From: Heterodontus francisci
Taxonomy: Eukaryota
Length of the DNA stretch: 64,000 nt
Assembly (NCBI RefSeq): GCF_036365525.1
Contig: NC_090402.1
Span: forward strand, 23,474,987-23,538,986
Direction: 5' to 3'
The position numbers and the translations under genes were made by a program. Of the stretch, positions 4,508 through 60,943 are shown piece by piece. The first letter of the stretch is position 1, and each line of letters begins with the position of its first letter. The notes under the pieces are model-generated. The model saw nothing but the letters and a program-made list of their open reading frames with translations. It was not told the origin of the DNA and did no database searches.

Positions 4508-10028
<5,521 letters not shown>

Positions 10029-18635: not shown

Positions 18636-18959
18636 TCAGAAATATCCCTGGTACCATTCTAGTAAAAACTCTTCTGCACCCTCTCCAAGGCCATGACACC
18701 CTAAACAGTATTGCCCAGAACTGAACACAGTACTCCAGCTGAGGCCTAACCATTGCTTTATGAAGATGTAGCATAACCTTCCTGCTTTTGTTTCTGTGGC
18801 TCCATTAATAAAAGGATCCTATGCTTTTTTAACAGTCTTCTCAACTTGGCCTGCCACCTTCAAACATTTGTGTACATACATTCCCAGGTCATTCTGTTCC
18901 TGACCCATCAAACTTAGTTCATATCGCCTCTCCACATTCTTGCTATCAAAATGTAAATG

Positions 18960-19190
18960 ACTGGTTAATCTCAGCGATGTTGTTTGAGGGATAAATGTCA
19001 GCAAAAACACAGGAAAAACCCCTCCCCTGCTGTTTGAATAATGTCATGGAATCTTTACATCCACCGAAGAGGGAAGATGGTGACTCTGTTTAACGTCGCA
19101 TCTGACAGGCAACACTGCCAAAGTTGCAGCATTGATGGAGTGGGGCTTGAATCCAAAACCTTCTGACTCTGGTGCAAGATTAAAAGATAA
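18960..19190 (-). mobile_element. Ancient tRNA-headed Deu-domain SINE remnant (SacSINE1-like)
   Basis: Reverse-strand B-box-like GGATTCAAGCCC and core tcagatgcgacgttaaac...ggatgtaaagattccatg; family assigned from recall. Confidence 0.5.
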
Positions 19191-19249
19191 CTACCATGAA
19201 AGTTTACACAAAAGTGTAGCCAAAAGTAACGACAAAGTGAGTTGTGATT

Positions 19250-21370
19250 TGAGTATGCCATACCCAAGACTTTGTTTATATGTACATGTGAGAGGTGCCC
19301 ACAGAAACTTCTTTAATTTTCCTGGCTTCCACTCTGCAATTATCCACAGCAGCACTGATGAAATCACAGATTTCCCCTGTGAGGGGTTAGAAAATGAAAC
19401 ATCCCTTCCAAGATAGTATGGGTTCTACACTTAGAGCTGAATCACTCTATAAATAGGCCCTTCAGCCCACCAAGTCTGTGCCGACCAACAACCACCCATT
19501 TATACTAATCCTACATTAATCCCATATTCCCTACCACATCCCCACAATTCTCCTACCACCTACCTACACTAGGGGCAATTTACCTATCAACCTGTAAGTC
19601 TTTGGCTGTGGGAGGAAATCAGAGCACCCAGCAGAAACCCACACAGTCACAGGGAGAACTTGCAAACTCCACACAGGAAGTACCCAGAACTGAGCCCAGG
19701 TCACTGGAGCTGTGAGGCTGTGGTGCTAACCACTGCGCCACTGTTATCTGTTGATAACATATTGACTGTGTCTTTGTTATTGTCAGTACATAATCAGAAA
19801 TTTCTGCAGTCAGAAGGAGATAATTAGAGACAATGTCCGACTCGCCCTATAGAAAGTAAAGGTAATGAATCTTCAAACAAGGAGTTCCTTTTGTCAGAGT
19901 AGAGTTAGCATAACTACAAGCAGATCTCCTGATTAAAGGTTCACTTTTTTGGTGGTATTCGGGGAGGGAGAATGAGAGAGAATCACCAATACTTGATCAA
20001 TCATAATGTCAAATTAAGATACGGATCTCAAAAAACATTTGTAATCGTGTTAAACTGAGCTTTCAATATCTAGGTAGTGTAACTGCTCATATCAAATAGA
20101 TACACTGAAGATTGGGGATGTATTAGCTGAAGGGTCTTTCATTTTCCATCTTCAAATTCCCCCACATGAATCTGAAATCAGGCAGCCTTGCAGACTATGG
20201 AACACAAAAATTCCAATTTAATGAATCCCTTCACATTCTACTGTTTTATCTGCTGCTGTCACAGTAGAATTGCATCCAGAAAGAACGAGTGTGCTCCTTC
20301 AGAGAAAAGATCAGGAGCCGTTTCCTTAACTTGAACCCCATACATGTACAGTCTTGTTCCAGCAACCTGAAGCCTATGAAAACAATCAAGAATTTATATC
20401 TGAGAGAACTGGTGCATAATTTACAAATTTTCTACAAGATTTTGGATTTTCTTTTTCTAAATCCCTGCCCTGAAGACAATGGTTCAATGTGGATTGGTTA
20501 CACCATAACTCCAGTGCATTACCCAATAGACCATATTTTGTTTTTAAGGCGGTAGAGAGTGCATTGGCCATTTTAACTAAGCCTGTTTTTTTTTTTCACT
20601 TGTTGTTTGCACACACATTTTCCAACATAAGTCACCAAAAGTTGAAACCAAACTGACTTCCTTCACTAGACCAGCAGAGCTGAAAAAAACTGTAGGCTCC
20701 CCACTGTCATCCTGGCTAAGATCAAGCAGCTAAATTAGGCCAGTGATCTTCCTAGACTGAATGGCTCCGTACCACACCATGCATTGGATATAACAGTGAC
20801 AGTGTCTGTGGTCATTTTTAATACCCTCAGTCTCTATTTTATTTCACCATTCAGCTTTATTAGCATTCTAATTGTGGAAAATGCAACACAGCTCACATTG
20901 CCTGTGTGACCATGCAATGTTTTTGTTTCATGCTTTGTAAATTCCACACCCTTACTGTACAATCCCAGGATCTAGAGGTCTGTACAAAAAGAACAACTGC
21001 TTACTCGAAGGAATCTCTAAGATCCGGTGCTGAAAAACGTGGCCCGGCTGGTTTTACAAGAACAGCTGTAGTTAGTACCCACACAGTTTGTAAATACTAC
21101 CAAAGAGATTCAACAGTTTCATCAAAAATATTACCGTTCAGTCTTTCAGATGCACCATTGAAAGTACTTTTCACATTTCAATGTATTGATTTGTAATTTT
21201 TTCATATTTTAATATAATTTTGTCCGCAGCCAGTTCTCTGCCCTGCATGTGGTACCCGAGGTGCGATTACCCTCCAGTACCTCACCCATTCTTCATGAGG
21301 AAGCAAAGGCGGTGAGTCTTGTAGTTTCAATGTGCCATCTTGAGCTGGGTTTTAGCTTGGGCTATTATCT
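19250..21370 (-). pseudogene. WDR38: Inverted, decayed duplicate of WDR38 intron 5 through the 3' flank (pseudo-exons 6: 20979-20861; 7: 20373-20242; 8: 20171-20127; 9: from 19846)
   Basis: Reverse complement is collinear with ~58460-60330, introns included. Exon 6 has a 4-nt deletion and has lost its donor; exon 7 has an insertion giving TAA and a deletion; exon 8 has TGA and a CT donor. Confidence 0.9.
19450..19744 (-). mobile_element. HE1-like V-SINE inserted in the pseudogene 3' region
   Basis: Same family as 11995-12319; absent from the corresponding position of the intact copy. Confidence 0.85.
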
Positions 21371-21409
21371 GAGTTGCTACGTGACTCAGTAAGGATAGGA
21401 AGAGATACT

Positions 21410-21639
21410 AAAATAAAAGCAAAATACTGCGGATGCTGGAAATCTGAAATAAAAACAAGAAATGCTGGAACCACTCAGCAGGTCTGGCAGCATCTGTGGA
21501 AAGAGAAGCAGAGTTAACGTTTCGGGTCAGTGATGCTTCTCCGGAACAAGGGTCACTGACCCGAAACGTTAACTCTGCTTCTCTTTCCACAGATGCTGCC
21601 AGACCTGCTGAGTGGTTCCAGCATTTCTTGTTTTTATTT
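21410..21639. mobile_element. Palindromic Penelope-like element with perfect 87-bp inverted arms
   Basis: TSD TAGGAAGAGATACT (21396-21409, 21640-21653); arms 21447-21533 and 21553-21639. Confidence 0.8.
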
Positions 21640-21654
21640 TAGGAAGAGATACTC

Positions 21655-22550
21655 TCATTTCAAGATTTTTAGCAGACTGGACTGGCTCCTCAGTCTCTCC
21701 ATTAGCTTGAGTATTGTGAGTGTTAATGGTAATAAGCACAAAGCAACACTGAGCTCTGAATATGTGAAACTCTGCAGCCGGAAATTGCATCACATTGTTT
21801 GTGACAAGTTCCTCAGGGATAGCCCAAGTGAACATATTCCTAAAATTCCAACTTATATCTGACAGGTGACTAATTTCAAGAAATCTAGATAACAGTCAAT
21901 GACTACAAGGTCTTTTTGTCCTCTAAGCTCCCACAAGACGACACAACAATCTTTTGCCAAGGTCTCTTTGGTAATGGTGTAATCATCAAAGGTGTAATCA
22001 TCTTTGAGTTGACAAAAGTCACATGAAGGCACATTCTTCTTGATGATATCCTTGTTAATGCCTCACCACACAGATATGTTTGTCTACTTGGCATTTTATC
22101 AACTTCAGATGGTCCTGATGCATCTCTCTCCTCATTGTAGGAGGGATATTAAGTATGGCCCATTACATCAACAACTTTTTTTTGCTGAGAATTCTCCTTG
22201 TACAATGTAACAACTTATCAGCTCATCAAGAAGATCTTGAATATACTTCAGCCATCCTTCTCTAGTGTTGAAAGTTTTCTATCTGCTATAGTTGTCTCTC
22301 TTATTGGTGTACCTCTGTATCTAAACATTACTATACTGGCCTTTACTGCTTCATGCGTCTGTATCTTAAGTAGGATTCCTGGATAATCTATCCACTACAT
22401 ATTACTTTCTCGAGAATATACTCTGCCTTTCCATTAAACCTCAAGTCTCTTCCAAAGATTCTGACATCTGAGTGCGACTATCCAAATCATAACTGGGAAG
22501 TGGTTAATCATACGACAGCAATTTCTCATCACATGCTTGTTGCACCCTGT
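21655..22550 (-). mobile_element. Decayed Ty3/Gypsy pol fragment (RNase H to integrase)
   Basis: PLMITPLPKRPWQKI and IPEELVTNN..QF...QANGETE integrase-like motifs, with many stops. Confidence 0.7.
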
Positions 22551-23640
22551 TGGGGGAAATTGCGGATTTTAAAGCTGTGCAAGTTCTGAAACTACCCCTT
22601 TATTTTTGAAACAGTGGCCGTAATTGGATAGATATCCTGTTAGTATCCAAGGGAGGGGGTAAACATTTGTATGGACATTAAGGGTAGATTTTACTTTAAT
22701 ATACAACTCTTTGTACTTTGAGCTTTTCATTGCACAACTCAATTGCATGTGTGAGAAGAACTCTGCTGGGCATTTCAATGTATGTTGAACCTAAACATAA
22801 CATTTGTTAGGCAGCAGATGGAATATTGTGCTTAGTTTTCGATACTCTCATTTGGAAGGGATGCCAAGGCCATGGAGAGGGTACTAGTTATGAGGAGGGG
22901 CTAAAGAAACTGGGGCTCTTTTTACAAGAACAGAGAAGGTTATGAGAAGAATTGATGGAGATGTTCAAAATTATGAGAGGCTTTGGTTAAGTATTTTGGG
23001 GAAATACTTTCACAGTTCAGTTAATCAATAACTAAAGAGCATAAATTTAAGATAATCACTAAAAGAACAAAACGTGGCAGGTACAAAACATTTTTACACC
23101 AAGGTTCTTAGGAAATTGTACTCCCTAATAACCTTGGTGGTGGTAGAAGATCTATAATAGCTTTTAAAAGATAAATATCTGAACAGTGCACAGGGTGCAG
23201 TTCTATTCACAACTCCTCAAGTAATGAAGCAGCCCATATCCACTTGCAGCAATACCCAGCCAGTATTCAGGCTTGGCTGATAAGTGGCAAATAACATTTA
23301 TGCCACACAAGTGCCAGGCAACGATCATATCCACCAAAAGAGAATCTAACCACCTCCCCCTTGACATTTAATGAAATTACTATTGCTGAATTCCCCCACC
23401 ATCACCATCCTTGAGGCTATCCCTCGATAGCCTGGTCCTGCAGCGCCTCAATTTTAATATTCTCATCCTTGTTTCCAAATCCCTCCGCCATCGACACAAC
23501 TATCTACAAGGTGCACTGCAGCAACTTGCCAAGGCTGCTTCGACAGCAACTTCCAAAGCCTTGACCTGAACTGCCTAGAAGAACAAGGGCAGCAGGTGTA
23601 TGGGAGCCCCTCCACTTACAAGTTCCCCTTCACCTTAAAC

Positions 23641-23810
23641 TAAAAGCAAAATATTGCGGATGCTGGAAATATGAAATAAAAACTGCAAGTGCTGGAAATA
23701 CTCATCAGGCCTGGCAGCATCAGTGGAGAGAGAAACAGTTAACGCTTAACATTAACTCTGTTTCTCTCTCCACAGGCCTGCTGAGTATTTCCAGCACATT
23801 CTGCTTTAAT
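23641..23810. mobile_element. Older palindromic Penelope-like element inserted in a LINE 3' fragment (~23200-24015)
   Basis: Same terminus taaaagcaaaata(t)tgcggatgctggaaat, imperfect inverted arms, degenerate TSD ttccc.tcacctt. Confidence 0.65.
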
Positions 23811-24299
23811 TTCCCATCACCTTCTTGACTTGTAAATATATCGCTGCTTCTTCATCATCACTGAGTCAAAACCCTGGAATTCCCTGCCTAGCAGAACTAT
23901 GGGTACACCTAGTCCATGCAGACCACTTCAAGAAAGTGTCTCACCTCAAGGGCAATTAGGGATGGCAATAGATCCTGGCTTTGCCAGCGATGCCCACATC
24001 CCATGAATAAATTTTAAAAATTTAATTAAAACTTTAAAAAAGCATGGGAATGAGACTGAGGATAACTCAGGGAACTATCCTCTTAGATGTGTACTATGAT
24101 TCATTGAGTATCTCTCATTCTTTGAGTGCCAGTGTTATTGTTTTTATTTATTGTGTATTCGCCTCATGCATCTTTATTTTTTTAATCATTTGTGGGATGT
24201 GGGCACCACTGGTGTCTGTTTGAGCCCCTGCACTTGATATTAGTGCATGCTGTACGTATGGTTATGTGCATTGTGCATTTGTCACTGTGTGCATAACTT

Positions 24300-24765
24300 C
24301 GTAAACCTGAGCTCATCCAAAACACTGCTGCCCGTTTACTGACTCGCTCCAAGTCCATCCATTCATTCATAGTCCTGGTACTGCAGTGCCTCAATGTTAA
24401 AATTCTGATCCTTGTTTCCAAATCCCTTGATAGCCTCTCCCCTCCCTATCTCTATAATCTCCTCTAGCCCTACAACCCTCTGATTGCTGCTCCAATTCTG
24501 ACCTCTTGCATATCCCTTATCTTAATCACGCCACTATTGGTGGCTGTGTTTTCAGCTGCCTAGCCCATAAACTGAAGTTCTTTCCCTAAATCTTTCTACC
24601 TCACTTCCTTTAAGATACTCCTTAAGACCTATCTCTTTGACCAAGCTTTTGATCTATCCTAATAGCTCCTTATGGGGTTTGGTGTCAAATTTTGTGAACA
24701 TTTGTGTGAAGTGCCTTGGAACACTTTACTGCATTAAGGGTGCTATATAAATGCAGGTTGTTGTT
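24300..24765 (+). mobile_element. L2-type LINE 3' fragment
   Basis: gagctcatccaaaac...gaccaagctttt...gtgctatataaatgcaggttgttg. Confidence 0.65.
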
Positions 24766-24792
24766 TAGGTTCAATTTGTCCTGATATCTTCA

Positions 24793-25139
24793 GTTTAGAG
24801 TTTAGAGTTACAGCACTGAAACAGGCCCTTCAGCCCACCAAGTCTGTGCCGACCATCAACCACCCATTTATACTAATCCTATACTAATCCCATATTCCTA
24901 CCACATCCCCACCTATATATTTCCCTACCACCTACCTATACTAGGGGCAATTTATAATGGCCAATTAACCTATCAACCTGCAAGTCTTTGGCATGTGGGA
25001 GGAAACCGGAGCACCCGGAGGAAACCCACACAGACACAGGGAGAACTTGCAAACTCCACACAGGCAGTACCCAGAATTGAACCCGGGTCCCTGGAGCTGT
25101 GAGGCTGCGGTGCTAACCACTGCGCCACTGTGCCGCCCC
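24793..25139 (-). mobile_element. HE1-like V-SINE
   Basis: Complete tRNA head, V-domain and tail on the - strand. Confidence 0.85.
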
Positions 25140-26659
25140 ATTCTGGTTCCATTCAGCATGGCTCATTCCCTTCCTCATTAATTACCCATGTTTTACACTG
25201 GCTGAAGTTTTGGATTTACATCATAAGGTTATAAATTCTTCACATCCATCACATGTCAATAACACTGATATGAGTGGCTGCCAATGACATCGTGTCATTA
25301 CCACAGGCACCAGAGCTTGTGATATCACAATCAGACCTGATCATTTTACTTTGAAACTTAGTCTCAGATATTAAAATGAAGGGACAAGGTAATACCCTTT
25401 ACTGCATAGATTAAAAATTAACAGTAATAAGGTACAGGGCGTTAGGACATTGTCTACTCACCAACAGGACCTGGGATTGAATCCAGTCCAGAAAAATGAG
25501 AGCAAGCAGGCTCTTTTCTCTCTGCTGTTTGGAGCAATTCTAGTGCTGAGTGGACATTGATCCACACCACAAAATGGCCTATAAATTGGCAATCTCACTC
25601 AGAGGTCACAGCAATGGAGAAAATGGAGCTCGCCAGAGGTTGGGAGCAGTGGAGGGGATTTTATTCCCCCTCCAACCATATCCCTAAATGTTGCCTGGGT
25701 TGATAAGGAAGATTTGCATTGATGTAGTGCCTTATGATGTCTCAAACGTGTTTCACATTCAGTGAATTACTCAGAAGTGTAACAGCTACTGCTGTTTTGC
25801 AAATCCTGGAGCAGACCTATGAACCTGGGGTTTTCTGATCTCGCCACAAACTCTGTTCCCTTGCCATTATCTTCATTCCCCTCTTTTGCCACGGTCTGAG
25901 GCTGAACTAAAATGTTTGCAACCTCAGCACCCTGTTTGACCCTGAGCTGAGTTTCTGACCCCATGCTCTCAACATTGTCCAGACTTCCAACTCTGTAATA
26001 TTGCCCATCTCCACCTTCGCCCCAGCCCATTGGCTGCTAAAACCCTCATTCATGCCTTTGTTATCTCCAGACTCAACAATTCTAATGTTCTCCTGGCCAG
26101 TCTCCCACCTTACATCCTCTGTAAACTTCAACTCATCCAAAATTCTGCTGCCTGTGTCCTAACTCGCACCAAGTCCCATTCACCTATCACTGCTGTGCTC
26201 ACAGACTGGTTTCCAGTCTGGCAATGTCCTTGTGTGAAGAAATGTTTCCTGGCATCACCCCTGACCAACCTAGGTATAATTTTAAGGTTGTGCCCTTTGT
26301 TCTGGACTTCCTCACCAATGGTTTATGAATGTAATATATTTGGCAAATTGGATCCTTGAGATCTTTTGAGAACATAAACAAACAGAGGAAGGAAAAGATT
26401 AATGAATGTAAATGTAGTCTGCAGTCACACCCCTTTGGCTACCACTCAGCAAGCCTGGAGCTGCCCAGCAGCCACTTAAGCCACTCAGAATCTATGTCGG
26501 CCCCATTCTCCACTAAAGAATTGTTTCCCATAATTTACAGCAGACGTGTAACTATCACATGCAACTGGCCAAGAATCTGCTGAATCTTTCTTGTCATTTG
26601 ATCGATGGCAATGGTGAAAATATTAAGCAAAAAGAAAAAATCAGCTGTATCAACTAACT

Positions 26660-26728
26660 ATGTGGAGGAAACTGACCTCATACTTCAACAACATCTCTGT
26701 GAGCTACTTTTACGCACACAAAGAAGAG
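26660..26728 (+). CDS. WDR38: WDR38 exon 1
   Basis: MWRKLTSYFNNISVSYFYAHKEE|gtaggc; 23 codons ending HxxE, like the human N-terminus. Confidence 0.75.
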
Positions 26729-29700
26729 GTAGGCAGCAAAGGTATTGACTTTTAACCTCAGACTTGTGGAAATTTCTTGTATATCTGAAATATTTATTTT
26801 ATATTTTTCAGCCACAGAAAGAACATAGTGAATCATATAATTTAACAGCATAGGGGAGGCCAGGTCTCTGAGCTATCCACTGTCTCACTCTTATGTCTTT
26901 TTAAAAACAACTTTCCAAAAATTATCCACTCCTCTTTTAAAAACTATTATGGATTCTGTTTCCCACCTAATAACCTCTGTGTAAAAAAAAAGTTTCCCCA
27001 TAGCTTTCCTTTCGTTCTTTTGATGATGATCTTAGATTTATGCTCTTTAGTTATCGGCTCCTTTATCAGTGGAAATAAGTTTTCTCGTCATAATTTTGAA
27101 TGGCTCAATCAGTTCTTCTCTGAACCTCCCCTGTTCTGGTGAAAAAAGTTCCAGTTTCTTTAGCCTCTCTTCCTAACTAAAGCTTCTCTTACCTGGGATT
27201 ATCTTCAGTACCCATTCCAAGTCCTTGGTATTTTTTCTAAATGAGAATGCCCAAAACTGGACGCAATATTCTAACTGCTGCGTAACAAATTATATGCATA
27301 GGTTCATTTCTACATTGAAAAACCCAAGAGTTCCTCTCACACATGCAGTTGAGGTATGCAATATAAAAGTACGAAGAGTTGTATATTAAAGTAAATGTTT
27401 TCCCCAATGTTGTAGCCTACTCAAGTGAAATATCACCTCCACTAAATGAATCTGAGTTTGAAACTGCTTCTGTTCATTTTGAATCCCCCCAGTCAAGTAC
27501 TCTTTCCTGGTGACAGTACTATGCACTAAGACAAACAGCTAAAATTTGAAAGCCCAAATTAAGAACTTCCAGCAGCTGGATTGTGATAAAAACCAATTGT
27601 TGCATAGACAGTGATTAGTTAGTAATGGCAAACAGGTGCCAACATTTGAGAGTCAACCCCTCAATCCAGCAGGCATGTGTCTGGTTCATCAGCAGCTGGA
27701 GAAGGTAGTTGTGAGAAATTTCTGTCAATCAGAGAACTACATATTCTCCTTAGAAGAATCAGGTGGCAGAGAAATGAATCCTGGGGGGAAGTTTTTCCAG
27801 GCTGTTGGAGGTGGGTTTGGAGCAGGGAAAGGGAAAAATGCTATCAGATTAGTATCCCAATGTGTTTTCTCATCCTTGTTTTCAAATCCCACAATGGCTT
27901 TGCTCCTCCCTATCTCTGTAATCTCCTCCAGCCCCACAACTCTCCAAGATATCTGTGCTCCTCTAATTCTGGGCTCTTGAGCATCCCAGATTTTAATTGC
28001 TCCACCACTGGGGGCCTTGCCTTTAGTTGCTTAGGCCCTCAGCTCCAGAATACTCTCCCTACACCTCTCCACCTTGCTTTCCTCCTTTTAAGACCCTTCT
28101 TTAAAAACTAGCTTTTGGTCATCTGACCTAATATAACACCATGCCTCATAAGGGAATATTTTGTTTTATAATGCTCCTGTAAAGCACCTTGGGACGTTAA
28201 ATGCCTTTATTACGTTAAAGGTGCTATATAAATATGTTGCTGTTTCTCGGGGGCCGGTTGGTCTTGAAGTCAGGAACCCCTGCGTTTGGGGCAGGAGGGC
28301 AATTGAGTTCATCAGATAAGCAATTCAGTGACTTTCTGAGTGGAATTCCTGTTTCCAAACAGTGGAGCTGCCTCATCCTGTGTCCCCAACCTGGTAGGTT
28401 GGAGCAGGTGAAAACAGTGAGAGAGACTGCCTCAGTGAAACTGACCAGCTATGAAAGCTTTGATCAGTTGCAATTAAGAGCTATAGAAATGGATGAGCTA
28501 AGAGGCTGCTTTGCAAAGGACTCCTCCTGCCAGACTCCTATCATGGCTTGACAGGTGAGAGCCAACTGCCTGGGAGACATATCACCTGACCAGCACTTCT
28601 CCGCCCTCAGCTGCACTTCCCTGCTCTCGGAGTGGTATGGGAGCAGCTTACGCAGCTACACCATCTCCCTCTGCTGAAGATCTAGGGCAGAGGGCTTTCC
28701 ACTGCAATGTGTAGCACCAGCTGCTTTCTCTGCAGTCACATGCCCCTCCACTGAGTTGTAGGTGGATGGAGACGAGACCTCAACAGAGGGTCTGCAGACA
28801 GAGAACCAGCTCTCTCGACATGTCTGAGCACCAGTGCCTCAGGAGGCCCAGCCTCTCACAGCACGTCGCTGCTGACATTTGCCCCCTCATGGTGCAAGAC
28901 CACCTTCCCAGTGGATCAGGTGGGCATGCATTGCCACTGCCACCCTCCCTAATTGGTCGAGGTGCCCAAAGGCAGGCTGTTAATTGGTTTGCTCTGGTAA
29001 AGAGTAACAGAGATTCCCTCTAATTGGGAAGTCAGGTTAACAACCCAAAAATGGTCCTACATCTAAAAATAAACTGAAAAGATTCTGTCCTTGGTAATCC
29101 TCATCCTGTGAAGCTTGGAAGCTGTTCTGTTTAATAAATCCGTTTAAAACTGAGACAAATCTCAGTCTAGTTTTGTGACAAAACACTATTAAAAAAAATC
29201 TTGTAGTGTTTGGAAATCTACTGTGACTGATCGAGGTACTCTGTAATGAAATAGTTTGTTTTGTGCAGGTGAACCAATGTGCATTCTCTAGTGATGGCCG
29301 GCTCCTATTAACAGCTTCCGACGACCATAGAGTTTGTGTCTGGAATGTTGGAACTGGAAAACTTCTATCTAAAATAAAAGGTCACACAGGTATGAGATTT
29401 CAGTTACCCCTTTCACCGGCTTGTAGGTACTCTTTATATATTTGTGATTTGTTCATTGGCCATACATAATTTATTAACCCTGCGTATTATTGGATATATT
29501 TTTGTGATCTTCAGTTTATCTTCTATCTTTATGCATGCCTTGTTTTGTTTTCCAATGATTTAATACTGTTAGAGCTGCAGTGAACATTTTTTAAACATTG
29601 TCATCATCAGTACTGTTCTTGTCTGATACCTTTGTTAGTGAATTGCTTCATTTAAGATCCACAAACACATTAGTACCTTTGGGGGGGGGGGGGGGGTGAT

Positions 29701-32700
29701 TTGCTCTGGTTGCTATTTCTAATGCAATCATAAATCAATTCTTTTAGAATGTACTTACAATTATGCTAAAATAGTAAAAGGAAGAAAAACCTGGCACCCC
29801 TTATTCACATAAGAATGTCATTTTGTTTAGAAGTCATTAATAAGTAGCAAGCAGAGAAATCTTTCCCCAAGGTCTGTAAATGGGACTTAAAGATATTAAG
29901 TAGTGTGTGATCAGATTAATTGTGGAATAAATATTTGTTCTCTCCAAGGATGCAAGTTGTATTATTTCTCAGTTGTGGGAAACCCATAATTATGGGGACT
30001 TTTTGCATTAATTTAATAAACTAACATTTCCTCTCAATGATGAGATTTTGGAGCTGATTTGCATCTCGGCCCAGTCTATGTTGGCGGTTGCACAGTTTGC
30101 AGGTACCGATTTACACATTACTGAATCTGGGACATTTCTAGTTTCAGCAAATCTGCATCGTGCTGGATGTGATAAACACTTTGTACTTCAATGATTAGCC
30201 TCCAGGGGTGGGAATTTGTGTGCTCCTGCAGATCTTAGAGGGGATTTCACTGCTGATAGACTTTGACAAGCTCTGGAAAATAAATGTGAGCTGTTGTGGT
30301 ACAACTTAAAAAGGAGGTCATAGAAAGCTGGCAGCTGCAGGTGTAACTCAGACCGATGTCCTGTTTCCTACCCTAAAATGTGGGTCAGAGGGTTTGGCAG
30401 GGGAGAGACCATGATCAGTGGCTTTTGTTCCTGTTCCAGGTAGGTTTTGAGTAAAATAGCTGTAACCAATTCTAGAGCTTCAGGCCAGGGAGTGCGTAAC
30501 ACCGTTCGGGTGGTGGTGAAGGATAAAGGAGATGCACCGGTTGACTGTACCTTCTTCAGCAAGAAAATCCTTATTGATTGCTGTGGATTCCATGCTGCGG
30601 ACATCTTCTGCCTGCTGGACTTCCCCAACAGTGGATATTTCGACGTGACTTTCAAGAATGTGGCGGGATGCATCAAGTTCCTGAAGGTGTTAAAGGAGAA
30701 GGGAAACCACACGCCGCTGTCAATCCTCACAGTGGAGCCACTTTTCACGCTGCCGTCACAACGTGACCGGGTGGTGACAATCCACCTCTGTAACCGCCAT
30801 GTTCCTGTCGTCGATATATTCACCTTCCTCGCCAGGTACGTCGAGGTGGCCGGCAGCAGCACTGATGTCAAGGTCACATTTGGGATTTGGACCAGCAAGC
30901 GGCAGGTCAAGGTGACCTTGAAGGTCGATGCCAAAGAAGCCTTCATCCCTCCAGCTTCGCTATCTGGGGAAGTCGAGGCTTCTTGGTCTATGCAGGACAG
31001 CCCAGAGTTTGTCGCACCTGTAGCAAATCTGGTCACATGGCAGCTAACTGCAGCACAGTCGTCTGCAAGAAGGAAGGCCATCAGACCAAGGACTGTAAGC
31101 AGAGTAAGTGCTGCAAACTGTGCGGTGAGGCAGGCCACCTCTACAAAACCTGCCCCAAACGCTGCCTCAGTTATGCACAGGCGGCAAGGTCCAAGGAAAG
31201 GCGTCTGGTGCTGGGAAGGAGACAAGCAACCCTCTCCGCAGCGAGGAAAGTCTACCTGAGAAGGAGGAGAAAGGGGAGGCAGTTGAAACCAGCGACCCAA
31301 CACCTACCCTGTGCACAGACAGAATCAATGGAGGAGGAGGCAGCAGATGGACAAACAGGCCAGTGGCAAGTGGTACAAAGGAAAACCACAAAGAAAAAAC
31401 CTCCAAAAGCAGAACAGGTCATCACCCAAACCAGTGACAAGAGGAGGCTACCGTCTGAGACAGATTGTAAATTGCCCCTAGTGTCGGTATGTGGTAGGAG
31501 AATGGTTGGGATGTGGTAGGGAATATGGGATTAATGTAGGATTATTATAAATGGGTGGTCGGCACAGACTCAGTGGGCCGAAGGGCCTGTTTCAGTGCTG
31601 TATCTCTAAAGAAAATAAAATAAATAAACTACGGCAGCTCCTCCTCACTGGATGAGGAAGGGCTGGAACGACGGCACCCGCAAAAGAAGCAGCAGAACTC
31701 AAAGGAGCTGGAAGGTAAAGCCCCCCCAGCTCCGGGGCACTGGAAGCTGTGATGGGCCCAGCGCGCCCCAAACCCAAAGCACCAAACCTAGCGACATGCC
31801 CAGCGCATCCCAGCACACTGAGAACAAAGAAGCATCGGGCGCACTCCAGCTCTGGGAAGCCGGGAGCAGTGATGTTTTCGTGGAGGAACAGAGGGGAAAG
31901 CCTTGCTGCCTACAAGATTCCCCCCCCCCCCGATGTCACCCCAGTGGAACAAACCCCCCATGAGAAACCAGGAGGGGTTTCTGAGCCCAACGAACGTGAA
32001 ACAGCTTGCGTACACTATGGGTATGCAGGAACATACCGAAGGACTGGGACTAGCAAGGACAACTGGTGTGGGAAGCAACAACTAACATAAAAATGGGTAT
32101 AAAGATTGCTTCAATTAACGTGGGTAACATTAAATCCACTACGCGATGTGTTTCAACCTTGGACTCCCTCTCCCAGGTCAAAGCCGACCTGCTGTTTCTA
32201 CAAAAGAGTGGAATACCACACCTCAGCACCTACAGGCAATGGTTGCGATGGTGGTCCCACAGGCCATTGATCTGGTCAGGGGGAAATGATTCCCGTTCCT
32301 CCGACCTGGGTATTCTGCTGCAGGGAGGTAACTTCACCATCTCTGAAGTTAAGGAGGTGGTGGGCGGTTGCCTTCTTGTAGCAAATACTCTGCTCTGGTT
32401 TATCAGCGTGCACACCCCAGTTCAATGCAGCGAGCAGCAGACTGTCTTCCAGCAGCTCCCACTGCTGCTGGCGACGTCCAGGCCGGTCATTCTAGGCGGT
32501 GACTTCAACTACATCATCAATGCAGCTGGACAATCCGGCAGTGACAACAGCAAACTGGACGCTACGTCCAGATTCCTAATGGAAACAGTAAAAGATGCCA
32601 AACTGCACGACGTCTTCAGCAAACCTGCAGACAGAGCGCAGCGTAGATAAACCTGGTCAAGATCGGACGGGTCTGCTCGTTTCAGGATTGACTTCCTGTT

Positions 32701-47700: not shown

Positions 47701-50700
47701 TAAAATGTGATCTGGATCCCCAGGCCGGGCAGAGGCGGGATCACCACCGACTTTTCATTCGGTGGATGACTCCCGTCCAACGAGAGTAAACTTCTGGCCC
47801 AGGAATCTATGGTTCTCCTCTGCACTGCCTCCTGGGCTTGAATGTTGAGCCTTGGTGATCAAAATTGTACACAACACTCAAAGTGCTGACTGATGATCCA
47901 ATATGAGATAATTGCAGCAAACTGGATCAAGCATGTGGTATTCTGGGTATAGTTCAACACAAGTGAATGATGAGAAAGAAAGAGAAAAACATAAGGAATT
48001 GGATAATAGAAGACAGCCAATCACAAAGTGGAGGCTTTTTTTGGCTTTGTCCACAAGCAACTCCATGACGATCAATTATTTCTTGATTGTTTCTCTAATA
48101 TCTTTGAGAGATAGCAACTAGCCCCATAAAAAAAACAAGCATATCTCTGGAAAATATACAGTTGCTCATTTATGGAGCAAATGTAAAATGAGAGAAGGAA
48201 GTAAAGGGAAGGGGCCCTACCATGATGGAGGCTGGGGTTAGTACAAGATCAATCAGAGAAAGATGTAATAGAAGCCAACACAATTTTATGTGCAGTTTAG
48301 CACTAAATCTTTTCTAGTAGTCTTTGACCTCGTCAGCAGACGTGGTCTCTTCAGACTACTAGAAAAGATCGGATGTCCACCAAAGCTACTAAGTATCATC
48401 ACCTCATTCCATGACAATATGAAAGGCACAATTCAACATGGTGGCTCCTCATCAGAGCCCTTTCCTATCCTGAGTGGTGTGAAACAGGGCTGTGTTCTCG
48501 CACCCACACTTTTTGGGATTTTCTTCTCCCTGCTGCTTTCACATGCGTTCAAATCCTCTGAAGAAGGAATTTTCCTCCACACAAGATCAGGGGGCAGGTT
48601 GTTCAACCTTGCCCGTCTAAGAGCGAAGTCCAAAGTACGGAAAGTTCTCATCAGAGAACTCCTCTTTGCTGACGATGCTGCTTTAACATCTCACAGTGAA
48701 GAGTGCCTGCAGAGTCTCATCGCCAGGTTTGCGTCTGCCTGCAATGAATTTGGCCTAACCATCAGCCTCAAGAAAACGAACATCATGGGGCAGGATGTCA
48801 GAAATGCTCCATCCATCAATATTGGCGACCACGCTCTGGAAGTGGTTCAAGAGTTTACCTACCTAGGCTCAACTATCACCAGTAACCTGTCTCTAGATGC
48901 AGAAATCAACAAGCGCGTGGGTAAGGCTTCCACTGCTATGTCCAGACTGGCCAAGAGAGTGTGGGAAAATGGCGCACTGACACGGAACACAAAAGTCCGA
49001 GTGTATCAGGCCTGTGTCCTCAGTACCTTGCTCTACGGCAGCGAGGCCTGGACAACGTATGCCAGCCAAGAGCGACGTCTCAATTCATTCCATCTTCGCT
49101 GCCTTCGGAGAATACTTGGCATCAGGTGGCAGGACTATATCTCCAACACAGAAGTCCTTGAAGCGGCCAACACCCCCAGCTTATACACACTACTGAGTCA
49201 GTGGCGCTTGAGATGGCTTGGCCATGTGAGCCGCATGGAAGATGGCAGGATCTCCAAAGACACATTGTACAGCGAGCTCGCCACTGGTATCAGACCCACC
49301 GGCTGTCCATGTCTCCGCTATAAAGACGTCTGCAAACGCGACATGAAATCGTGTGACATTGATCACAAGTCGTGGGAGTCAGTTGCCAGCATTCGCCAGA
49401 GCTGGCGGGCAGCCATAAAGACAGGGCTAAATTGTGGCGAGTCGAAGAGACTTAGTAGTTGGCAGGAAAAAAGACAGAGGCGCAAGGGGAGAGCCAACTG
49501 TGCAACAGCCCCAACAAACAAATTTCTCTGCAGCACCTGTGGAAGAGCCTGTCACTCCAGAATTGGCCTTTATAGCCACTCCAGGCGCTGCTTCACAAAC
49601 CACTGACCACCTCCAGGCGCATATCCATTGTCTCTCGAGATAAGGAGGCCCAAAGAAGAAGCACTAAATGCAAATTTTTGTGTGCTACACCTTTCCACAT
49701 TCAGGATATCATAGATTCATCAGATATGGTTTTGGATAAAGGAAAATTATTCTCTGAAAATGATTTTAACATTCCCCTGCAAATAGCACACATTCTCTGA
49801 ATCTTATTTTAGTATCAGGGCTGCTGCTGTGAAGTTTAGATCTGACACAAATTAATGGAAAAATAAAAGAAAATCCAGATATCCAGAATTTGATGAAAAA
49901 TAGTGATAGTTACTGATTTGGGTTTTAGCCATTGGGTTTTAACTTCAACATTTAGTTTGACTTTATAAGAAAACTGATTCTAATATGTTCCAACACACGC
50001 CACAGAACCGCATCTCATTGATGTTGCCTTAACACTATTCTCTAACATGGTCAAACGAGCTGTGTTGTTCTTAGGACACACGAAGAGTGTGGAAACCGTA
50101 TGCTTCAGCAGTGATTCGAGTTTGCTCGCATCTGGAAGCTGGGACTATACAGCTGTTCTTTGGGATCCAAAGGTTAGTTGTAGGCCTTTTAATTTAATTA
50201 TGTTTCCCATCATTGTGTTTTCCAGTCACATCAACCACCGCACCCTCATTTCTGTCACCACCCCACCCCCCCTCCCCCACACTGACAATGGTGTCCCTGT
50301 CCTAGCCCTATTTATCTGTGCAATATGTTATGGGTCCCGAAGCTGTCTGAGGGGCAAGCAGGCATGGATCCCGATTGTCCTCGAGATTGGCTGGTAGGTG
50401 GGCTTGGCAGCCAAGTAGCAGCAGCGGGCAGGGGAGGGAGCAGGCCCAATTTAAAGGCATGATGGCAGCCATTCCTGTGGCAGCTGTCTTGCAACTCAAT
50501 GACAGGCAGAAGTCAACAGGAGGGGAGGCAGAGGTCTGTCACCTGAGGCAGGACTGCCCCGCAGTTTAGAGACTCCGCCCTTGATGTCCTCTTGGAGGCT
50601 GTGAACAAAAAGCTGTTGTAGTATGTTAATGTGGGTATGTCCATATTCTGTAAACATCATCCGGCAGCATGAGATGTCATCTGTCATGTGACACAGTAGT

Positions 50701-56700: not shown

Positions 56701-59700
56701 AGCCAGTATCTGCAGCTGGACACACTTCCTGTACACATGGTCGCCAGGGACACTGGAAGTGTCCCTGATTTCCCACATAGTGCAGGAGGAGCATGCCACG
56801 GGGCTGAGCTCTCCTGCTATGACTTAGCCTTAGATTAAGCTCCTTAGTTACTCCCTTTTAATTTAGAGTACTAATTACGATAGGGTCCTTATTCTACTCC
56901 AAACACTATCTGCTACAATCTAAATTCCCTACCTTTACTTTTACTTTAGCTATTGAAAGTAGTAAAAAAGGGTCGAGTTGGCCAATTTGCAGAAAATCAG
57001 CAACATCAATTTATACTTGAAGTGTGCCTTTAACATAATGAAACGTCCCAAGGCACTTTACAGAAACATTATAAAACAAAGTATTACACCGAGCCACCAA
57101 AGGAGATAGAATGTCAGATGACCAAAAGCTTAGTCAAAGAGGTTGGTTTTAAGGAGCATTTTGAAGGAAAGCAAGGTGGGGAGGTGTAGGAAGGGTATTT
57201 CAAAGCTAGACAACTGAAGGCACAGCCACCAATGGTGGAGCGATTAAAGTCAGCGATGCACGAGGCTAGGATTAGAGGAGCGCGGGTATCTTGGAGGGTT
57301 GTGGGGCTGGAGGAGATTCGAGAGATAGGGAGGGGCAAGGCCATGGAGGGATTTGAAAGCAAGGATGAGAATTCATGTTTCATACACCATGCGAGCTCCT
57401 GACCCCTATTTGACCCTGATGTCGGGATCACAAAGCCCGCAGGGTAGATCCTGCCTATGGTTTTAAATCTGTCCGGACCAACAGGGTGTCAATGAAAGGC
57501 AATAATGAGGCCAGGTTTCTACAATTGATAAGCAGTATAGTGTGCCACTTTTCACTCTTACTGACTGATTATGAGGGAATATCACTGCATTAGTGTATTG
57601 TAATCATTTATTTAGTCTCAAGACATAGTATGATACTGGAAAGAGTTGCTTAGATAATTAAACCTATCCGTTCAGTACAGTTAGGGTATACTGTGTCTGA
57701 ATAAGTCAAAATTCTGTTTATATTATATGAAACGTTGAGACTATTCCTAAAGAATTGGGAATTGAGTTTTTCAATTCCATTCCTTTTAACAGCACAAGAC
57801 AGCAGCATTTATTATTGTCTCAATTCAGGGAGGACAGTGATGTTAAAAATTATAGGAATGGGCAGTTTTAATTTGCTTTTGTTACAAAAGTGTAAGAAAG
57901 CCTAATTCCTGTTTTATGTATTGAACAAAAAATTTGTGGAGTCTATTCTTTTGCTGCTCCTGTACCTGCAGATGTATAACTAACTCTAAACTATTTAAAC
58001 TCTTTTTATTTTTAAACAGTCAGGACAACTTGTGAAGTCTCTCACTGGACATCAGAATGTGATTAAAGCCTGTGCCATTTCATTCGATGGAGAACATTTG
58101 GTAACCTGGTTTACTTCATTTATACTTGTGCTGTATCCCTAATTATCTCCAGTGCACTGAGTATATCATATTTACTACTTACATTTATACAGCACCTTTT
58201 AACATAGAAGTCCCGTGGCATTTTAAATAGTTGCAAAGGGTGGGGAAAGATTAGAAATAGATAAAAGGAATAAAGGAGTGGATGCTGGTTCAGGGTTTGG
58301 AAAAGGTGTATGAAAGCTTCATCAAGCAGAAGAGTACTGAGGTTTTTAAAGGTGGCGAGAGATTTGGCGGACTTAAAACTACTAGCAACAATGTCAGAGT
58401 TCTCCACGGACCACAGCTGGAAAGTGCGAGGATTTCAGATATGGACAGAATTGTGCTTGGCTATAATGCAGCCCAAACAAAGGGCCAAGCAACACTCACT
58501 GTCGTTACCTCACCCGTTCTTCATGGGTGAGCACTGGAGTGTGGTGGCACCTCAGGAGCCACATCTACAGCAGCGAATTGGCAGGAGACAAAAGCAAGTA
58601 TATTGAAATATGAAAAAGTTACAGTTCAATACATTGATATGTGAGAAGTACATTAGGTGATGCATCTGAAAGACTGAATGGTAATATTTTTGATGTAACT
58701 GTTGAATCTCTTTGGTAGTAAATGTATTAACAAACTGCCTGGGTGTTCTTGTTAAACCAGCCAGAACATGTTTTTCAGGGCTGGATCTTAGAAATTCCTT
58801 CAAGTAAGCGGTTGTTTTTCTTGTGCAGGCCACTGGGTCCTGGGATTGTACAGTAATGGTGTGGAATTTACAAAGCATGGAACGACAATTTATTTTGCAC
58901 GGTCACACTGGCAATGTGAGCTGTGTAGCGTTTTCTCGAATTGGAATGCTGGTAAGTTGATTGGTGAAATGAAATAGAAAGTAGTGGTATTGAAGCAACA
59001 TGGGCACTGTCACTTACTCAGTGGCAAAATCCAATGTATGGACTGGTACTGAGCCATTCAAACTAGGATGGTCTCTGGCCTAAGCTAAGTTACCTGATTT
59101 TAGCCAGGCTGACAGTGGGGCCCTACAATTTCCCTATTTTCTTTGGCTCATAAAGGAAGGAAGTCAGTTTGGTTCCTACCTTTGATGTTGCAAAGTGTAT
59201 GTGTAAACATCAGGTGGAAACGAGATCAAGCTCCATTATAATAGCCCAATGCACTCTCCATAGCCTTACAAATGAAAGATGGTCTATTGGGTAATGCATT
59301 GGAGTTAATGGTGTAACAATCCAGATGAAGCCTGTGCCTTCAGGAGGAGGAATTTGAAAGGCAAAATACAAAATTCTATAGAAGATTTGACATCGAAAGA
59401 TTAACAAGTTATTGCTCAAAACACCAGTTCTCTCAGATGTAAATTCTTATTGTTTTATATAGGCCTCAGGTTCCTGGGACAAGACAGTACGTGTATGGGA
59501 TTCAAGGAATGGGCTCCTGATCTTTCTCCTGACGGAGCACACTGGTCGGGTGATGGCTCTCTCATTCTCTCTGGATGCAATTCTACTGGTGACAGCAGCA
59601 GAAGATGAAACGGTAGAATGTGAAGGGATTCATTTAAATTGGAATTCTTGTTTTCAATAGGCTGCAAGGCTGACTCATTCTCATCTGTTCTCATAGGTTC

Positions 59701-60140
59701 GTGTGTGGGATTGTGAAGATGGAAAATGTAAGAAGATCCTTCAGGTAATACATCCCCAGTCTTTAGTGTATCTATTTGACATGAGCAGTTACACTATCTA
59801 GATATTCCAAGGCCAGTTTAACATGATTAATATTTTTCCAAAAACAATTGTAATGTAATCTGTACCTTAATTTGAGACTTTTATGATAGAATCACCAATA
59901 TTTGATAATTCTCATTCCCCTTCCCCACGGCTACATTAAAAAAAACCTTTAATCAGGATATTTGTACAGAACAGTTTCTAATCATGTTAACACTCTACTC
60001 TGATCTGACCAATGAACCTCCTTGTTTGATGATTGATTATCTTTTCTTTCTTCCCCTAGGGGAAGTTGGATATCATCTTCAGTTGTCAATTTTCTCCTTC
60101 TGATACCCTTCTGACTGCAGGAACTTCTGATCTGGATTGA
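26660..60140 (+). CDS. WDR38: WD repeat-containing protein 38, 295 aa, 9 coding exons
   Basis: All introns are GT-AG with consistent phase (69+121+117+98+81+123+150+48+81 = 888 nt). Repeated GH...WD motifs; segments correspond to recalled human WDR38; adjacent to RPL35 as in mammals. Confidence 0.9.
27860..28240 (+). mobile_element. L2-type LINE 3' fragment
   Basis: Closely similar to 38625-39010. Confidence 0.7.
29269..29389 (+). CDS. WDR38: WDR38 exon 2
   Basis: cag|VNQCAFSSDGRLLLTASDDHRVCVWNVGTGKLLSKIKGHT|gtatga. Confidence 0.92.
30440..35695 (+). mobile_element. Near full-length Tx1-like (L1 clade) LINE, frameshifted
   Basis: ORF1 with three CCHC-type knuckles (CRTCSKSGHMAANC; C.KEGHQTKDC; CKLCGEAGHLYKTC). 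ORF2 APE (IASINV, GDFN), RT (ISLLNVDYKI, LDQEKAFDR, YMDD), C-terminal C-x-C-x-H-x-C finger. AATAAA and A-rich end at ~35670-35695. Confidence 0.9.
31465..31628 (+). mobile_element. 5'-truncated HE1-like SINE inserted into Tx1 ORF1
   Basis: ttgtaaattgcccctagtg...gggccgaagggcctgtttcagtgctgtatctctaaa(TAAA)n. Confidence 0.8.
36010..36357 (-). mobile_element. CR1 LINE 3' end fragment
   Basis: Similar to 14000-14350 (3' tail and ORF2 C-terminus). Confidence 0.75.
36358..37210 (-). mobile_element. LTR-like element interrupting a CR1 fragment
   Basis: Starts TGTTAC; the first ~90 nt resemble the reverse complement of the 39897 terminus; right boundary uncertain. Confidence 0.5.
37365..39015 (+). 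mobile_element. 5'-truncated L2 LINE (RT plus 3' end), frameshifted
   Basis: LQSGFHP..S.ETA, LSAAFD.ID, GVPQGSILG.LLF, (Y)ADDT; conserved 3' tail. Confidence 0.88.
39081..39897 (+). mobile_element. Putative solo LTR (817 bp)
   Basis: TGTCA...TAACA termini, internal AATAAA near 39700, near-match 4-bp flanks tgat/tgaa. Confidence 0.55.
40969..41693. mobile_element. GC-rich non-autonomous TIR element (MITE)
   Basis: TIRs GGCTGGAATTTTA / TAAAAATCCAGCC; homologous to 47084-47799; inserted within a decayed CR1 (~40100-42860). Confidence 0.7.
42861..44110 (-). mobile_element. LTR-like element with an internal ~70-bp tandem duplication (~43235-43378)
   Basis: Starts TGTTACA; reverse-strand polyA signal (tttatt motifs); right end uncertain. 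Confidence 0.45.
43792..43899. mobile_element. Short Penelope-like element (inverted terminus fused to one arm)
   Basis: 15-bp TSD ACAACCGCCTGCTAT (43777-43791, 43900-43914). Confidence 0.78.
44256..44372 (+). CDS. WDR38: WDR38 exon 3
   Basis: cag|(G)PVKACAFSADSKLFATGSYDCTVRVWDTERAQCLRILQ|gtatct. Confidence 0.92.
44637..44713 (+). mobile_element. Truncated Penelope-like terminus
   Basis: 13-bp TSD ATGATTTTCTGGT (44624-44636, 44714-44726); gctgccagacctgctgag...gcagtattttgct. Confidence 0.72.
44882..45212 (-). mobile_element. HE1-like V-SINE
   Basis: Same family as 11995-12319. Confidence 0.85.
45710..46400 (-). mobile_element. Decayed CR1 3' fragment
   Basis: RLEKLGFSLEQRWLRGDLINVFKIMKG...TRGH ORF2 C-terminal motif. 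Confidence 0.7.
47084..47799. mobile_element. GC-rich non-autonomous TIR element (MITE), possibly PIF/Harbinger
   Basis: TIRs GGCTGGAATTTTAC / GTAAACTTCTGGCC, flanked by CAG on both sides; paralog of 40969-41693. Confidence 0.7.
48309..49659 (+). mobile_element. Young 5'-truncated RTE-clade LINE with an uninterrupted RT C-terminal ORF (to 49606)
   Basis: GVKQGCVLAPTLF, LFADD, FTYLGS, LRWLGHVSRM, C-terminal CxxC..H finger; (GAA)n tail; 10-bp TSD AGCACTAAAT (48299-48308, 49660-49669). Confidence 0.92.
50075..50172 (+). CDS. WDR38: WDR38 exon 4
   Basis: tag|(G)HTKSVETVCFSSDSSLLASGSWDYTAVLWDPK|gttagt. Confidence 0.92.
50690..52805 (+). mobile_element. Decayed Ty3/Gypsy LTR retrotransposon (LTR/PBS-like region, protease, RT, RNase H)
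   Basis: KIDTGVSTNILP protease motif near 51315, KKDGAIRVCLD, TTFWTPFGRYCFQRLPFGL, QDGKPIAF.SKSL. Confidence 0.78.
52876..56960 (-). mobile_element. Near full-length CR1 LINE (ORF1 zinc finger/esterase, ORF2 APE-RT), frameshifted
   Basis: IGESIVRGTDRRFCG, CIYFNARSL, YLDFSKAFDKVPH, GSVLGPLLF, FADD; 3' tail gggccgaagggcctgtttctgtgctgta shared with the HE1 SINEs. Confidence 0.92.
57015..57375 (-). mobile_element. L2-type LINE 3' fragment
   Basis: Reverse complement of the 38625-39010 family. Confidence 0.7.
58020..58100 (+). CDS. WDR38: WDR38 exon 5
   Basis: cag|SGQLVKSLTGHQNVIKACAISFDGEHL|gtaacc. Confidence 0.9.
58829..58951 (+). CDS. WDR38: WDR38 exon 6
   Basis: cag|ATGSWDCTVMVWNLQSMERQFILHGHTGNVSCVAFSRIGML|gtaagt. 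Confidence 0.92.
59463..59612 (+). CDS. WDR38: WDR38 exon 7
   Basis: tag|ASGSWDKTVRVWDSRNGLLIFLLTEHTGRVMALSFSLDAILLVTAAEDET|gtagaa. Confidence 0.92.
59697..59744 (+). CDS. WDR38: WDR38 exon 8
   Basis: tag|VRVWDCEDGKCKKILQ|gtaata. Confidence 0.9.
60060..60140 (+). CDS. WDR38: WDR38 exon 9 (terminal coding exon)
   Basis: tag|GKLDIIFSCQFSPSDTLLTAGTSDLD TGA. Confidence 0.88.
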   Translation, partial: GKLDIIFSCQFSPSDTLLTAGTSDLD

Positions 60141-60943
60141 CAATCACAAAGGAATCTGTTATCAACGTAGACGATGCAACTATGATTCAACACCAAGAGG
60201 TTTTAAAAAGAAGTTGGATCCTTCTTCAAGAGTATCTTCATAGTTAGTCATGCAGACCACTTTAATGAAGTTAGAGAAATTGCTTTTTGGCATCGCTCAC
60301 ATTTACAAAAAAAACTTATTTATGGTACTGTCCGTATTAGAAGCAAGAAAGAACTTTCATTTATATCACGACTTTCACAACCTCAGTGTGTCCCAAAGTG
60401 CTGACTTAAACTCTCACTAAAACTGATTATCCAATTATGTATCTCATCGCTGTTTGTGATATCTTGCTGTGCACCAATTGGCTGCTGCAGTTCCTAGATT
60501 TTAACAGTGGCTATACTTCAAAATATTTCATCGCCATTAGGTGGCACCAAGTCTCCCACTTGTCTTCATTGAGTCCCATCTTCCAATTGTTTTCATTCAG
60601 AAGTATGGGGGTCTTTTACATTTATCTGTTTTTTTTCTTTTGTTTAATTTATTTTAGTTCATTCCCAGAACTCTCCTATACTGCCTCGTATGCCGATCCC
60701 ACTCCTCATCATCCTTGCTTATCACCTCTGCACTGTCCTACATCTGTTATGGTGCTGGAAAATATTTTGTTTTTGTTGACTCCTTATTGAAAATCAAGCT
60801 CTTCTCCTGTGATTCAGTACTTCATCCTCATCCCATCAACTGGCAGCTTACTCAAAAGCAGTGCCTGCCTCCTGGTCCCACCTACTTTAAAACATTATGA
60901 GCAATTCAAAATGGCTAGTGTGCTAGGAATGTCAAAATAGTCG

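Follow-up and report, generated by a model that had tools for sequence, protein, structure and literature searches.

A dead inverted copy and three intact copies of WDR38 at a probable inversion in the shark Heterodontus francisci

Beside RPL35 in the shark Heterodontus francisci a dead copy of WDR38 lies on the minus strand and is followed by an intact copy on the plus strand, which raises the question of which direction is the old one and how the two opposed copies arose. In human, WDR38 is, as we assume, placed tail-to-tail with RPL35. An earlier note on this DNA had proposed that the dead copy marks the old position and strand of the gene, and that an inversion with a staggered break duplicated about 2 kb of its 3' end and turned the one working gene around. 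The DNA analysed is a window of 64,000 nucleotides (contig NC_090402.1, positions 23,474,987 to 23,538,986) with its surroundings, and positions above 64,000 are extended coordinates, that is, the contig position minus 23,474,986. The dead inverted copy is called psi and the plus-strand copies A, B and C, and each publication is cited for a part of its text only. The neighbours of the locus inside the window are:

3,920-4,057, minus strand: ARPC5L-like exon 1, head-to-head neighbour of RPL35 (Pfam P16-Arc with E 8.7e-4, which does not reach the curated cut-off; named from gene order)
4,508-10,027, plus strand: RPL35 (Pfam Ribosomal_L29, E 7e-10 on 5,996-6,124; ends read from the sequence)

The donor after the ARPC5L-like exon 1 (3,905-3,918, minus strand) reads ATATCCTTT, which we take to be the U12-type AT-AC consensus and presumably also to occur in human ARPC5/ARPC5L. 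Exons of GOLGA1 are located upstream of the window on the plus strand, as are A, B and C, and about 540 kb past copy C there is an olfactomedin-domain gene on the minus strand that is taken as OLFML2A from gene order. The cited part of PMC8624223 has the gene order of the WDR38 neighbourhood in cattle and does not give the strands. The identity of the shark genes as WDR38 is based on an exon-by-exon match to models of that name and on the position beside RPL35, both of which were found.

In a self-BLAST, 19,750-21,289 on the minus strand is aligned with 60,166-58,523 on the plus strand over 1,695 columns with 73.2% identity and 206 gap columns, and psi is collinear with A through intron 5, exons 6-9 and introns 6-8. 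Since the introns align, psi is a copy made at the DNA level and not a retrocopy, as the earlier note had stated; a processed pseudogene was considered and rejected, as introns 1, 5, 6, 7 and 8 all align and no intron loss is seen. Exons 6-8 are disabled by frameshifts and lost donors and exon 9 is deleted in part, likewise in agreement with the note. From the 3' flank to the junction with copy A the region contains:

18,955-19,449, minus strand: 3' flank of psi, matching B 110,441-110,971 and C 150,483-150,985 (extended)
19,451-19,744: SINE-like repeat between the 3' flank and exon 9 of psi
19,783-19,846, minus strand: psi exon 9 with 18 nt deleted; its 3' end is approximate
20,127-20,171, minus strand: psi exon 8, 3-nt deletion, donor GT changed to CT
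20,242-20,373, minus strand: psi exon 7, frameshifted (+5, -19 and about -4 nt relative to A)
20,861-20,979, minus strand: psi exon 6, 4-nt deletion, donor GT changed to AT
20,980-21,321, minus strand: intron-5 remnant of psi, from alignment to the copies
21,322-22,400, no strand: presumptive site of the exon 2-5 deletion, containing a high-copy repeat that is palindromic (21,406-21,642) and a decayed stretch that its motifs tentatively mark as retroelement-like
22,401-23,183, minus strand: intron-1 remnant 1 of psi, matching B 85,587-86,371 with 73%, C with 80% and A with 69%
24,024-24,299, minus strand: intron-1 remnant 2 of psi, matching B 84,627-84,744 and 85,445-85,586 and A 26,813-26,928
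24,302-24,766, plus strand: dispersed repeat on the near junction, between psi (minus) and the upstream region of A (plus), from self-comparison

The remnants of intron 1 change the size of the duplicate. Genome-wide, 22,400-22,857 has long matches in no other place than intron 1 of the three plus-strand copies (all 10 candidates were scored); a 190-bp repeat inside remnant 1 is exempted from this statement, and remnant 2 was compared inside the locus only. The 5' limit of psi is set by remnant 2 at about 0.3 kb (a repeat-free estimate) into intron 1, and the original span reached from there to at least 18,955 in the 3' flank; nothing more of the flank was found past 18,954 in a search of 10-19 kb. 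In B coordinates this span holds 7,397 low-copy bases common to A or psi, or about 7.1 kb minus one non-collinear hit, of which 2,534 remain in psi. Collinear remnants of intron 1 thus indicate an original duplicate of about 7 kb or more, and the 2-kb block would be what was left when psi later lost exons 2-5. The block that the note had placed at about 19,250-21,370 is real, but it is longer, with its 3' flank to 18,955 and intron 1 to 24,299. The note had also found no copies of exons 1-5, which holds for exons 1, 2, 4 and 5, with three loci only for exons 1 and 4, but it overlooked the pieces of intron 1 at 22.4-24.3 kb. Remnants of exons 1-5 between 21.4 and 26.6 kb had been named there as the mark of a whole-gene inverted duplication, and the intron-1 pieces come near to this.

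The region of psi is rebuilt by DNA contigs of two runs, covering 19,717-21,432 and 21,618-23,294 (1,716 and 1,677 bp) at single-copy depth. Both runs were made from the same sample, so the support is not independent, and the contigs break at young repeats, which leaves some room for an assembly artefact; such an artefact is highly improbable, as the copies differ by up to about 20% and carry separate insertions, and the psi contigs show 0 differences in run X1.

A genome search with the 3' end of A gave two more plus-strand copies, B and C, outside the window, and the live gene of the note is accordingly one of three intact tandem copies, each with nine exons, GT-AG introns and an open frame:

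26,660-60,140, plus strand: WDR38 copy A, intact, 295 aa
26,660-26,728; 29,269-29,389; 44,256-44,372; 50,075-50,172; 58,020-58,100, plus strand: exons 1-5 of copy A
58,829-58,951; 59,463-59,612; 59,697-59,744; 60,060-60,140, plus strand: exons 6-9 of copy A
24,760-26,659, plus strand: upstream region of copy A, beginning at the equivalent of C 118,630, without segment u (see below)
60,141-63,754, plus strand: 3' flank of copy A, also present in B and C and containing part of segment v (63,155-63,186)
83,180-110,273 (extended), plus strand: WDR38 copy B, intact, 302 aa
122,725-150,320 (extended), plus strand: WDR38 copy C, intact, 302 aa

RPL35 and copy A are both on the plus strand and thus co-directional, as noted earlier. 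Exons 1, 2 and 5 are present in three copies only in the 264 kb examined, and exons 4 and 1 at three loci only in the genome (3 candidates each). Homology among A, B and C runs on to 63,754, and position 60,330, which had been given as the boundary of the duplication, is therefore not a breakpoint.

Some further features of the three copies were observed. Close to the end of exon 9 (60,120-60,140) one nucleotide is deleted in copy A relative to B and psi, and the protein of A is 7 residues shorter than those of B and C. The NCBI model labelled Heterodontus francisci WDR38-like has the residues of copy B; this model (P0059) skips exons 1, 3, 8 and 9 and reads into introns, giving 230 aa against 302 aa here, and among the matches listed there were no NCBI models for A or C. 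Intron 2 of A contains a GC-rich, by eye LINE-like insertion of roughly 5 kb (30,400-35,700) which B and C do not have there. An inverted pair with 91% identity, 48,319-49,661 within A and 60,955-62,300 after A, recurs at 74.7-76.7 kb and 217-218 kb (extended), and is hence a young dispersed element and no breakpoint. Between A and B, L009:3281-5098 on the minus strand holds a 606-codon open frame with MULE and ZSWIM RNaseH-like domains, possibly a young Mutator-like element. The B/C joint carries a decayed transposon with a DDE_Tnp_4 domain (extended 112,488-118,190; L013:8488 to L014:4190), which we take to be Harbinger-like, and its left 530 bp are also found after A (63,224-63,754). A 231-bp contig from a run guessed to be RNA matches 60,096-60,326 without a difference; its depth is 2.9, it has no splice joint, and it was not counted as expression of copy A.

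Around copy C the following segments were found, in 264 kb that contain 36 locally low-copy pairs of at least 80 bp:

118,326-118,460 (extended), plus strand: segment u, 135 bp, upstream of C
151,854-151,969 (extended), plus strand: segment v, at the 3' end of unit C, with plus-strand partners also at the 3' ends of A and B
152,179-152,317 (extended), minus strand: inverted u, just past the 3' flank of C
152,920-153,026 (extended), minus strand: inverted v, 600 bp outward of inverted u

Non-repetitive DNA is thus present as an inverted duplicate at both breakpoints, psi against A, B and C at the one and u and v at the other, and the order psi (minus), then A, B and C (plus), then u and v (minus) is seen directly. 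The far breakpoint lies about 90 kb past 60,330, after two more genes. Segment u has two places in the genome search (2 of 2 candidates), in which absent matches do not prove rarity, and for v the best 40 of 65 candidates were scored; two other local inverted pairs, used as controls, turned out to be dispersed repeats with 2,905 and 4,575 candidates. The alignments of u and v beat 200 of 200 shuffles, with 29 differences in 135 positions between u and inverted u, a divergence close to that of psi from A, B and C. For v the plus-strand partners of B and C differ at 7 of 103 positions, and they differ from inverted v at 19 of 89 and 25 of 107. Beyond u and v, a search for more WDR38 remnants out to extended 284 kb gave only matches that looked like dispersed repeats. 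The 600-bp spacer between inverted u and inverted v gave no alignment beside u or v on the plus strand, and in five comparisons of the spacer and of the DNA flanking u and v with the other strand all results were at chance level or close to it (the score was reached by 16 to 197 of 200 shuffles). An insertion of inverted u into an old repeat was rejected, as the repeat is not resumed beyond it in 10 of 10 copies compared.

In gene order the unit may be written v-u-P-b-f, with v and u as upstream pieces, P the promoter and exon 1, b the gene body and f the 3' flank; that v is DNA from upstream of WDR38 is our reading of its position. The outer edges of the array carry the 3' part (psi) and an upstream piece (u) of a minus-strand unit. 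Provided that the outer pieces stayed put, WDR38 was most likely tail-to-tail with RPL35 immediately before the event, in which the old locus on the minus strand was divided and the working lineage turned round. The view of the note that the dead copy marks the old position and strand is thus strengthened by the reciprocal inverted u just past C, whereas its staggered break of about 2 kb does not agree with a duplicate of at least about 7 kb and a far breakpoint about 90 kb further on.

An improbable alternative is that the plus orientation is ancestral, with psi as a fold-back inverted duplicate upstream of A and the inverted u and v as unrelated small captures during repair. A frog model, P0131, has a GOLGA1-like N-terminus with a GRIP domain spliced to WDR38 exon 2 on one strand, and GOLGA1 in the shark is on the plus strand like A, B and C; P0131 may imply that frog WDR38 is on the GOLGA1 strand, although a local rearrangement in the frog is possible, and mammals alone do therefore not fix the ancestral orientation. 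Short captures are also common according to PMC2671141, and the spacer without alignment would fit them. Against this, three independent and similarly old inverted copies must by chance rebuild a minus-strand unit at both outer edges, and u lies 34 kb from its partner while 824 of the 1,136 captures in PMC2671141 came from within 5 kb.

For the mechanism of the flip we favour, at a little below an even chance, that a tandem duplicate came first and that an ordinary inversion then cut through it, and psi is then likely to be one of two old side-by-side WDR38 copies facing RPL35 that was left behind by the inversion. A tandem duplication on the minus strand would first have made the f/v joint, and an inversion with one end in intron 1 of copy 1 and the other shortly before the promoter of copy 2 would then have given f1'b1' / P2 b2 f2 v1 u1 P1 / u2' v2'. 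P2 and P1, now direct repeats, could have recombined by unequal crossing-over to give A, B and C. Severed from its promoter, psi would have dropped exons 2-5, and a deletion after C would have removed the orphan P1, a step proposed from the missing pieces. Gene conversion would since have kept exons 7-8 alike, where the near-identity is observed and conversion is the proposed cause.

Several parts of the junctions agree with this order of events. The upstream region of A starts where C has position 118,630 and inverted u where C has 118,460; the two are thus complementary and do not overlap, as a blunt break predicts. The joint of f with plus-strand v at the ends of A, B and C indicates that a tandem joint was carried within the inverted segment, if v is indeed upstream DNA, and since plus-strand v stands at all unit ends, with B and C closer to each other than to inverted v, the joint predates the triplication. 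The two direct promoter repeats left by the model would yield exactly the tandem unit that is observed. The promoter side of A differs from B and C by 0.205 and 0.206 (1,294 columns) and the introns of the body by 0.173 and 0.163 (2,376 columns), an excess with Fisher p of 0.018 for A-B and 0.0013 for A-C and none for B-C (0.49); by blocks it is weak, with a Mann-Whitney p of 0.21 for A-B and 0.021 for A-C. Such an excess is predicted if B and C carry P1, and it could instead come from conversion near the exons. The old repeat after plus-strand v continues in B and is cut at 152,184 in C, which is an independent indication of a deletion on the C side. The orphan P1 is absent in the genome-wide search with exon 1, and its deletion has to be assumed. 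Both junctions have been overwritten, by the repeat at 24,302-24,766 and by the deletion on the C side, and the sequence of the breaks is thereby lost. The spacer between u and v speaks against this history, and v alone fits a short repair-mediated capture, a class with a mean of 162 bp and lying about 1.2 kb apart in PMC2671141.

The layout, written b' / u P b / u', also corresponds to the two-sided signature given in PMC1885836 and would fit an inversion with paired duplications (dupINVdup). Such a one-step event, through staggered chromatid breaks or two template switches, is an enlarged form of the model in the note and is rather unlikely in our estimate: the gene body would have been duplicated at the near end and the upstream DNA at the far end, plus-strand v captured at the joint, and the tandem duplication added afterwards. 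It agrees with the similar divergence of the three inverted pieces (u 0.215, v 0.21-0.23, psi 0.17-0.19, values from short segments and different filters), and cases of 7.1 kb and 4.3 kb are described in PMC3355041. However, the inverted segment should then start with the duplicate of the far end, and the upstream region of A has neither u nor v, although a loss beneath the junction repeat is possible. Plus-strand v after the last copy demands an additional capture, the coincidence of the ends of the tandem unit with both ends of the inversion is left unexplained, and the unwinding of 7 kb or more is a difficulty for the isochromatid form that is raised in PMC1885836 itself.

An event without any flip of the DNA in between is quite improbable; here a circular copy of the whole unit, with f closed onto v, would have re-entered intron 1 of its own donor in reverse and killed it, with nearly the same arrangement as the outcome. 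The permuted order u-P-b-f-v resembles the change of block order that is a signature of circles in PMC7450558, but the circle must land in its own donor, the original promoter must be lost and u must disappear from A, and a tandem duplication gives the same f/v joint more simply. Very doubtful is the extension by which the circle copy gave rise to an array of sperm-protein paralogues that diverge and are present across sharks, with blades from exons 7-8 kept identical by conversion that selection favoured. The duplicate-first history explains more of the anatomy of the junctions than a staggered break does.

Over 615 intron columns aligned in all four copies, the divergence of psi is 0.187 from A, 0.180 from B and 0.174 from C, and that of A-B, A-C and B-C is 0.150, 0.141 and 0.065, with bootstrap values of 0.978 and 0.9975 for psi as the oldest. 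In the 402 columns off the conversion tract (see below) the differences are 71, 66 and 61 between psi and A, B and C, against 65 for A-B and 63 for A-C; the excess of psi vanishes here, which counts against the duplicate-first history, and psi is accordingly of the same age as the split of A from B and C or a little older. The divergence of B and C varies from 0.03 to 0.20 by block, and these values are therefore not clean clocks. In exons 1-6 dS is 0.27-0.33 between A and B or C and 0.15 for B-C, and dN is 0.15-0.16 and 0.06 respectively.

One tract departs from this pattern:

59,240-59,830, plus strand: near-identity tract of A, B and C, from the end of intron 6 to the start of intron 8, with 13, 15 and 10 differences in 591 columns

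Exons 7-8 with their introns are 97-98% identical among the three copies, and in exons 1-6 and 9 A differs from B and C by 12-25%. Of 393 non-coding positions in the tract 10 (A-B), 14 (A-C) and 6 (B-C) differ, with binomial P of 1e-16, 3e-12 and 2e-6 against the background intron rates, and just upstream of it A has 33 of 163 non-coding differences. One DNA contig spans the tract at depth 14.9, against depths of 4.8-8.5 for other contigs, which is what a collapse of near-identical copies would give. Tandem paralogues are known to undergo patchy concerted evolution by gene conversion, and the shark tract resembles this in being sharply bounded, in including introns and in being far more alike than its flanks; it differs in that a single exon 7-8 tract is common to all three copies while exons 1-6 and 9 have diverged. 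The near-identity is likely to reflect gene conversion among A, B and C, with which it is consistent. In the two sawfish WDR38 models it is exon 3 that is identical, which suggests that conversion acts in sawfish as well.

A protein tree was made from 15 sequences and 267 columns, with exons missing from the models masked by judgement and five outgroup rows left out, and it supports sharks with 77 and rays with 96. Copies B and C group with the models of white shark, smooth-hound and basking shark, apart from A, with a support of 64, and the white shark model has a Cys opening exon 9, as in B and C. The flip may thus predate the lineages of these three sharks, if a grouping of this modest support is correct. 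The rays have two WDR38 classes with support 99 each (P0094, P0112, P0080, P0087 and P0115). One ray class has an exon 6 of 40 residues, and psi, which lacks 4 nt at the corresponding place, may or may not be its orthologue, since the tree sets sharks and rays apart.

Both leading mechanisms have been described in Drosophila, and the shark locus is a clear fresh example and no new mechanism. In the cited part of PMC3355041 the 2c inversion of Drosophila mojavensis (GstD1) broke at a pre-existing duplication; as in the shark, copies in opposite orientation at the two breakpoints have the look of a staggered break and are best read as an older duplication. The break of 2c fell between two genes and both survived, unlike in the shark, where it would have fallen in intron 1 of one copy, killing that copy, and where the flipped copy was later tripled. 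Staggered-break inversions with inverted duplications of at most 1.9 kb are given in the cited part of PMC1885836, and D. mojavensis 2h and 2q are further cases; PMC3355041 ascribes a 7.1-kb duplication to staggered breaks, so that size alone does not exclude them; a human dupINVdup class is reported in PMC5338099. Like these inversions the shark has non-repetitive DNA inverted at both ends, and as in 2h (PMC3355041) the dead copy has shrunk through deletions. Unlike them, the shark has a duplicate of about 7 kb or more, A is without the far-end duplicate and an upstream piece ends every unit.

The copies resemble WDR38 of other vertebrates as WD40-repeat protein genes that match exon by exon, and they differ from it in number, with three intact copies and a pseudogene, as far as it is covered in PMC10579810, where a function in testis and acrosome is described for human and mouse only. 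Our literature search gave no paper treating WDR38 together with shark and no shark title among the WDR38 papers listed, and the expansion is apparently unreported before. An inverted duplicate at a breakpoint is by itself no proof of a staggered break, as deletions have here cut a nearly whole-gene copy down to 2 kb and a history in which the duplicate came first fits at least as well. If other sharks share the flip, it would serve shark phylogeny as a rare genomic marker.
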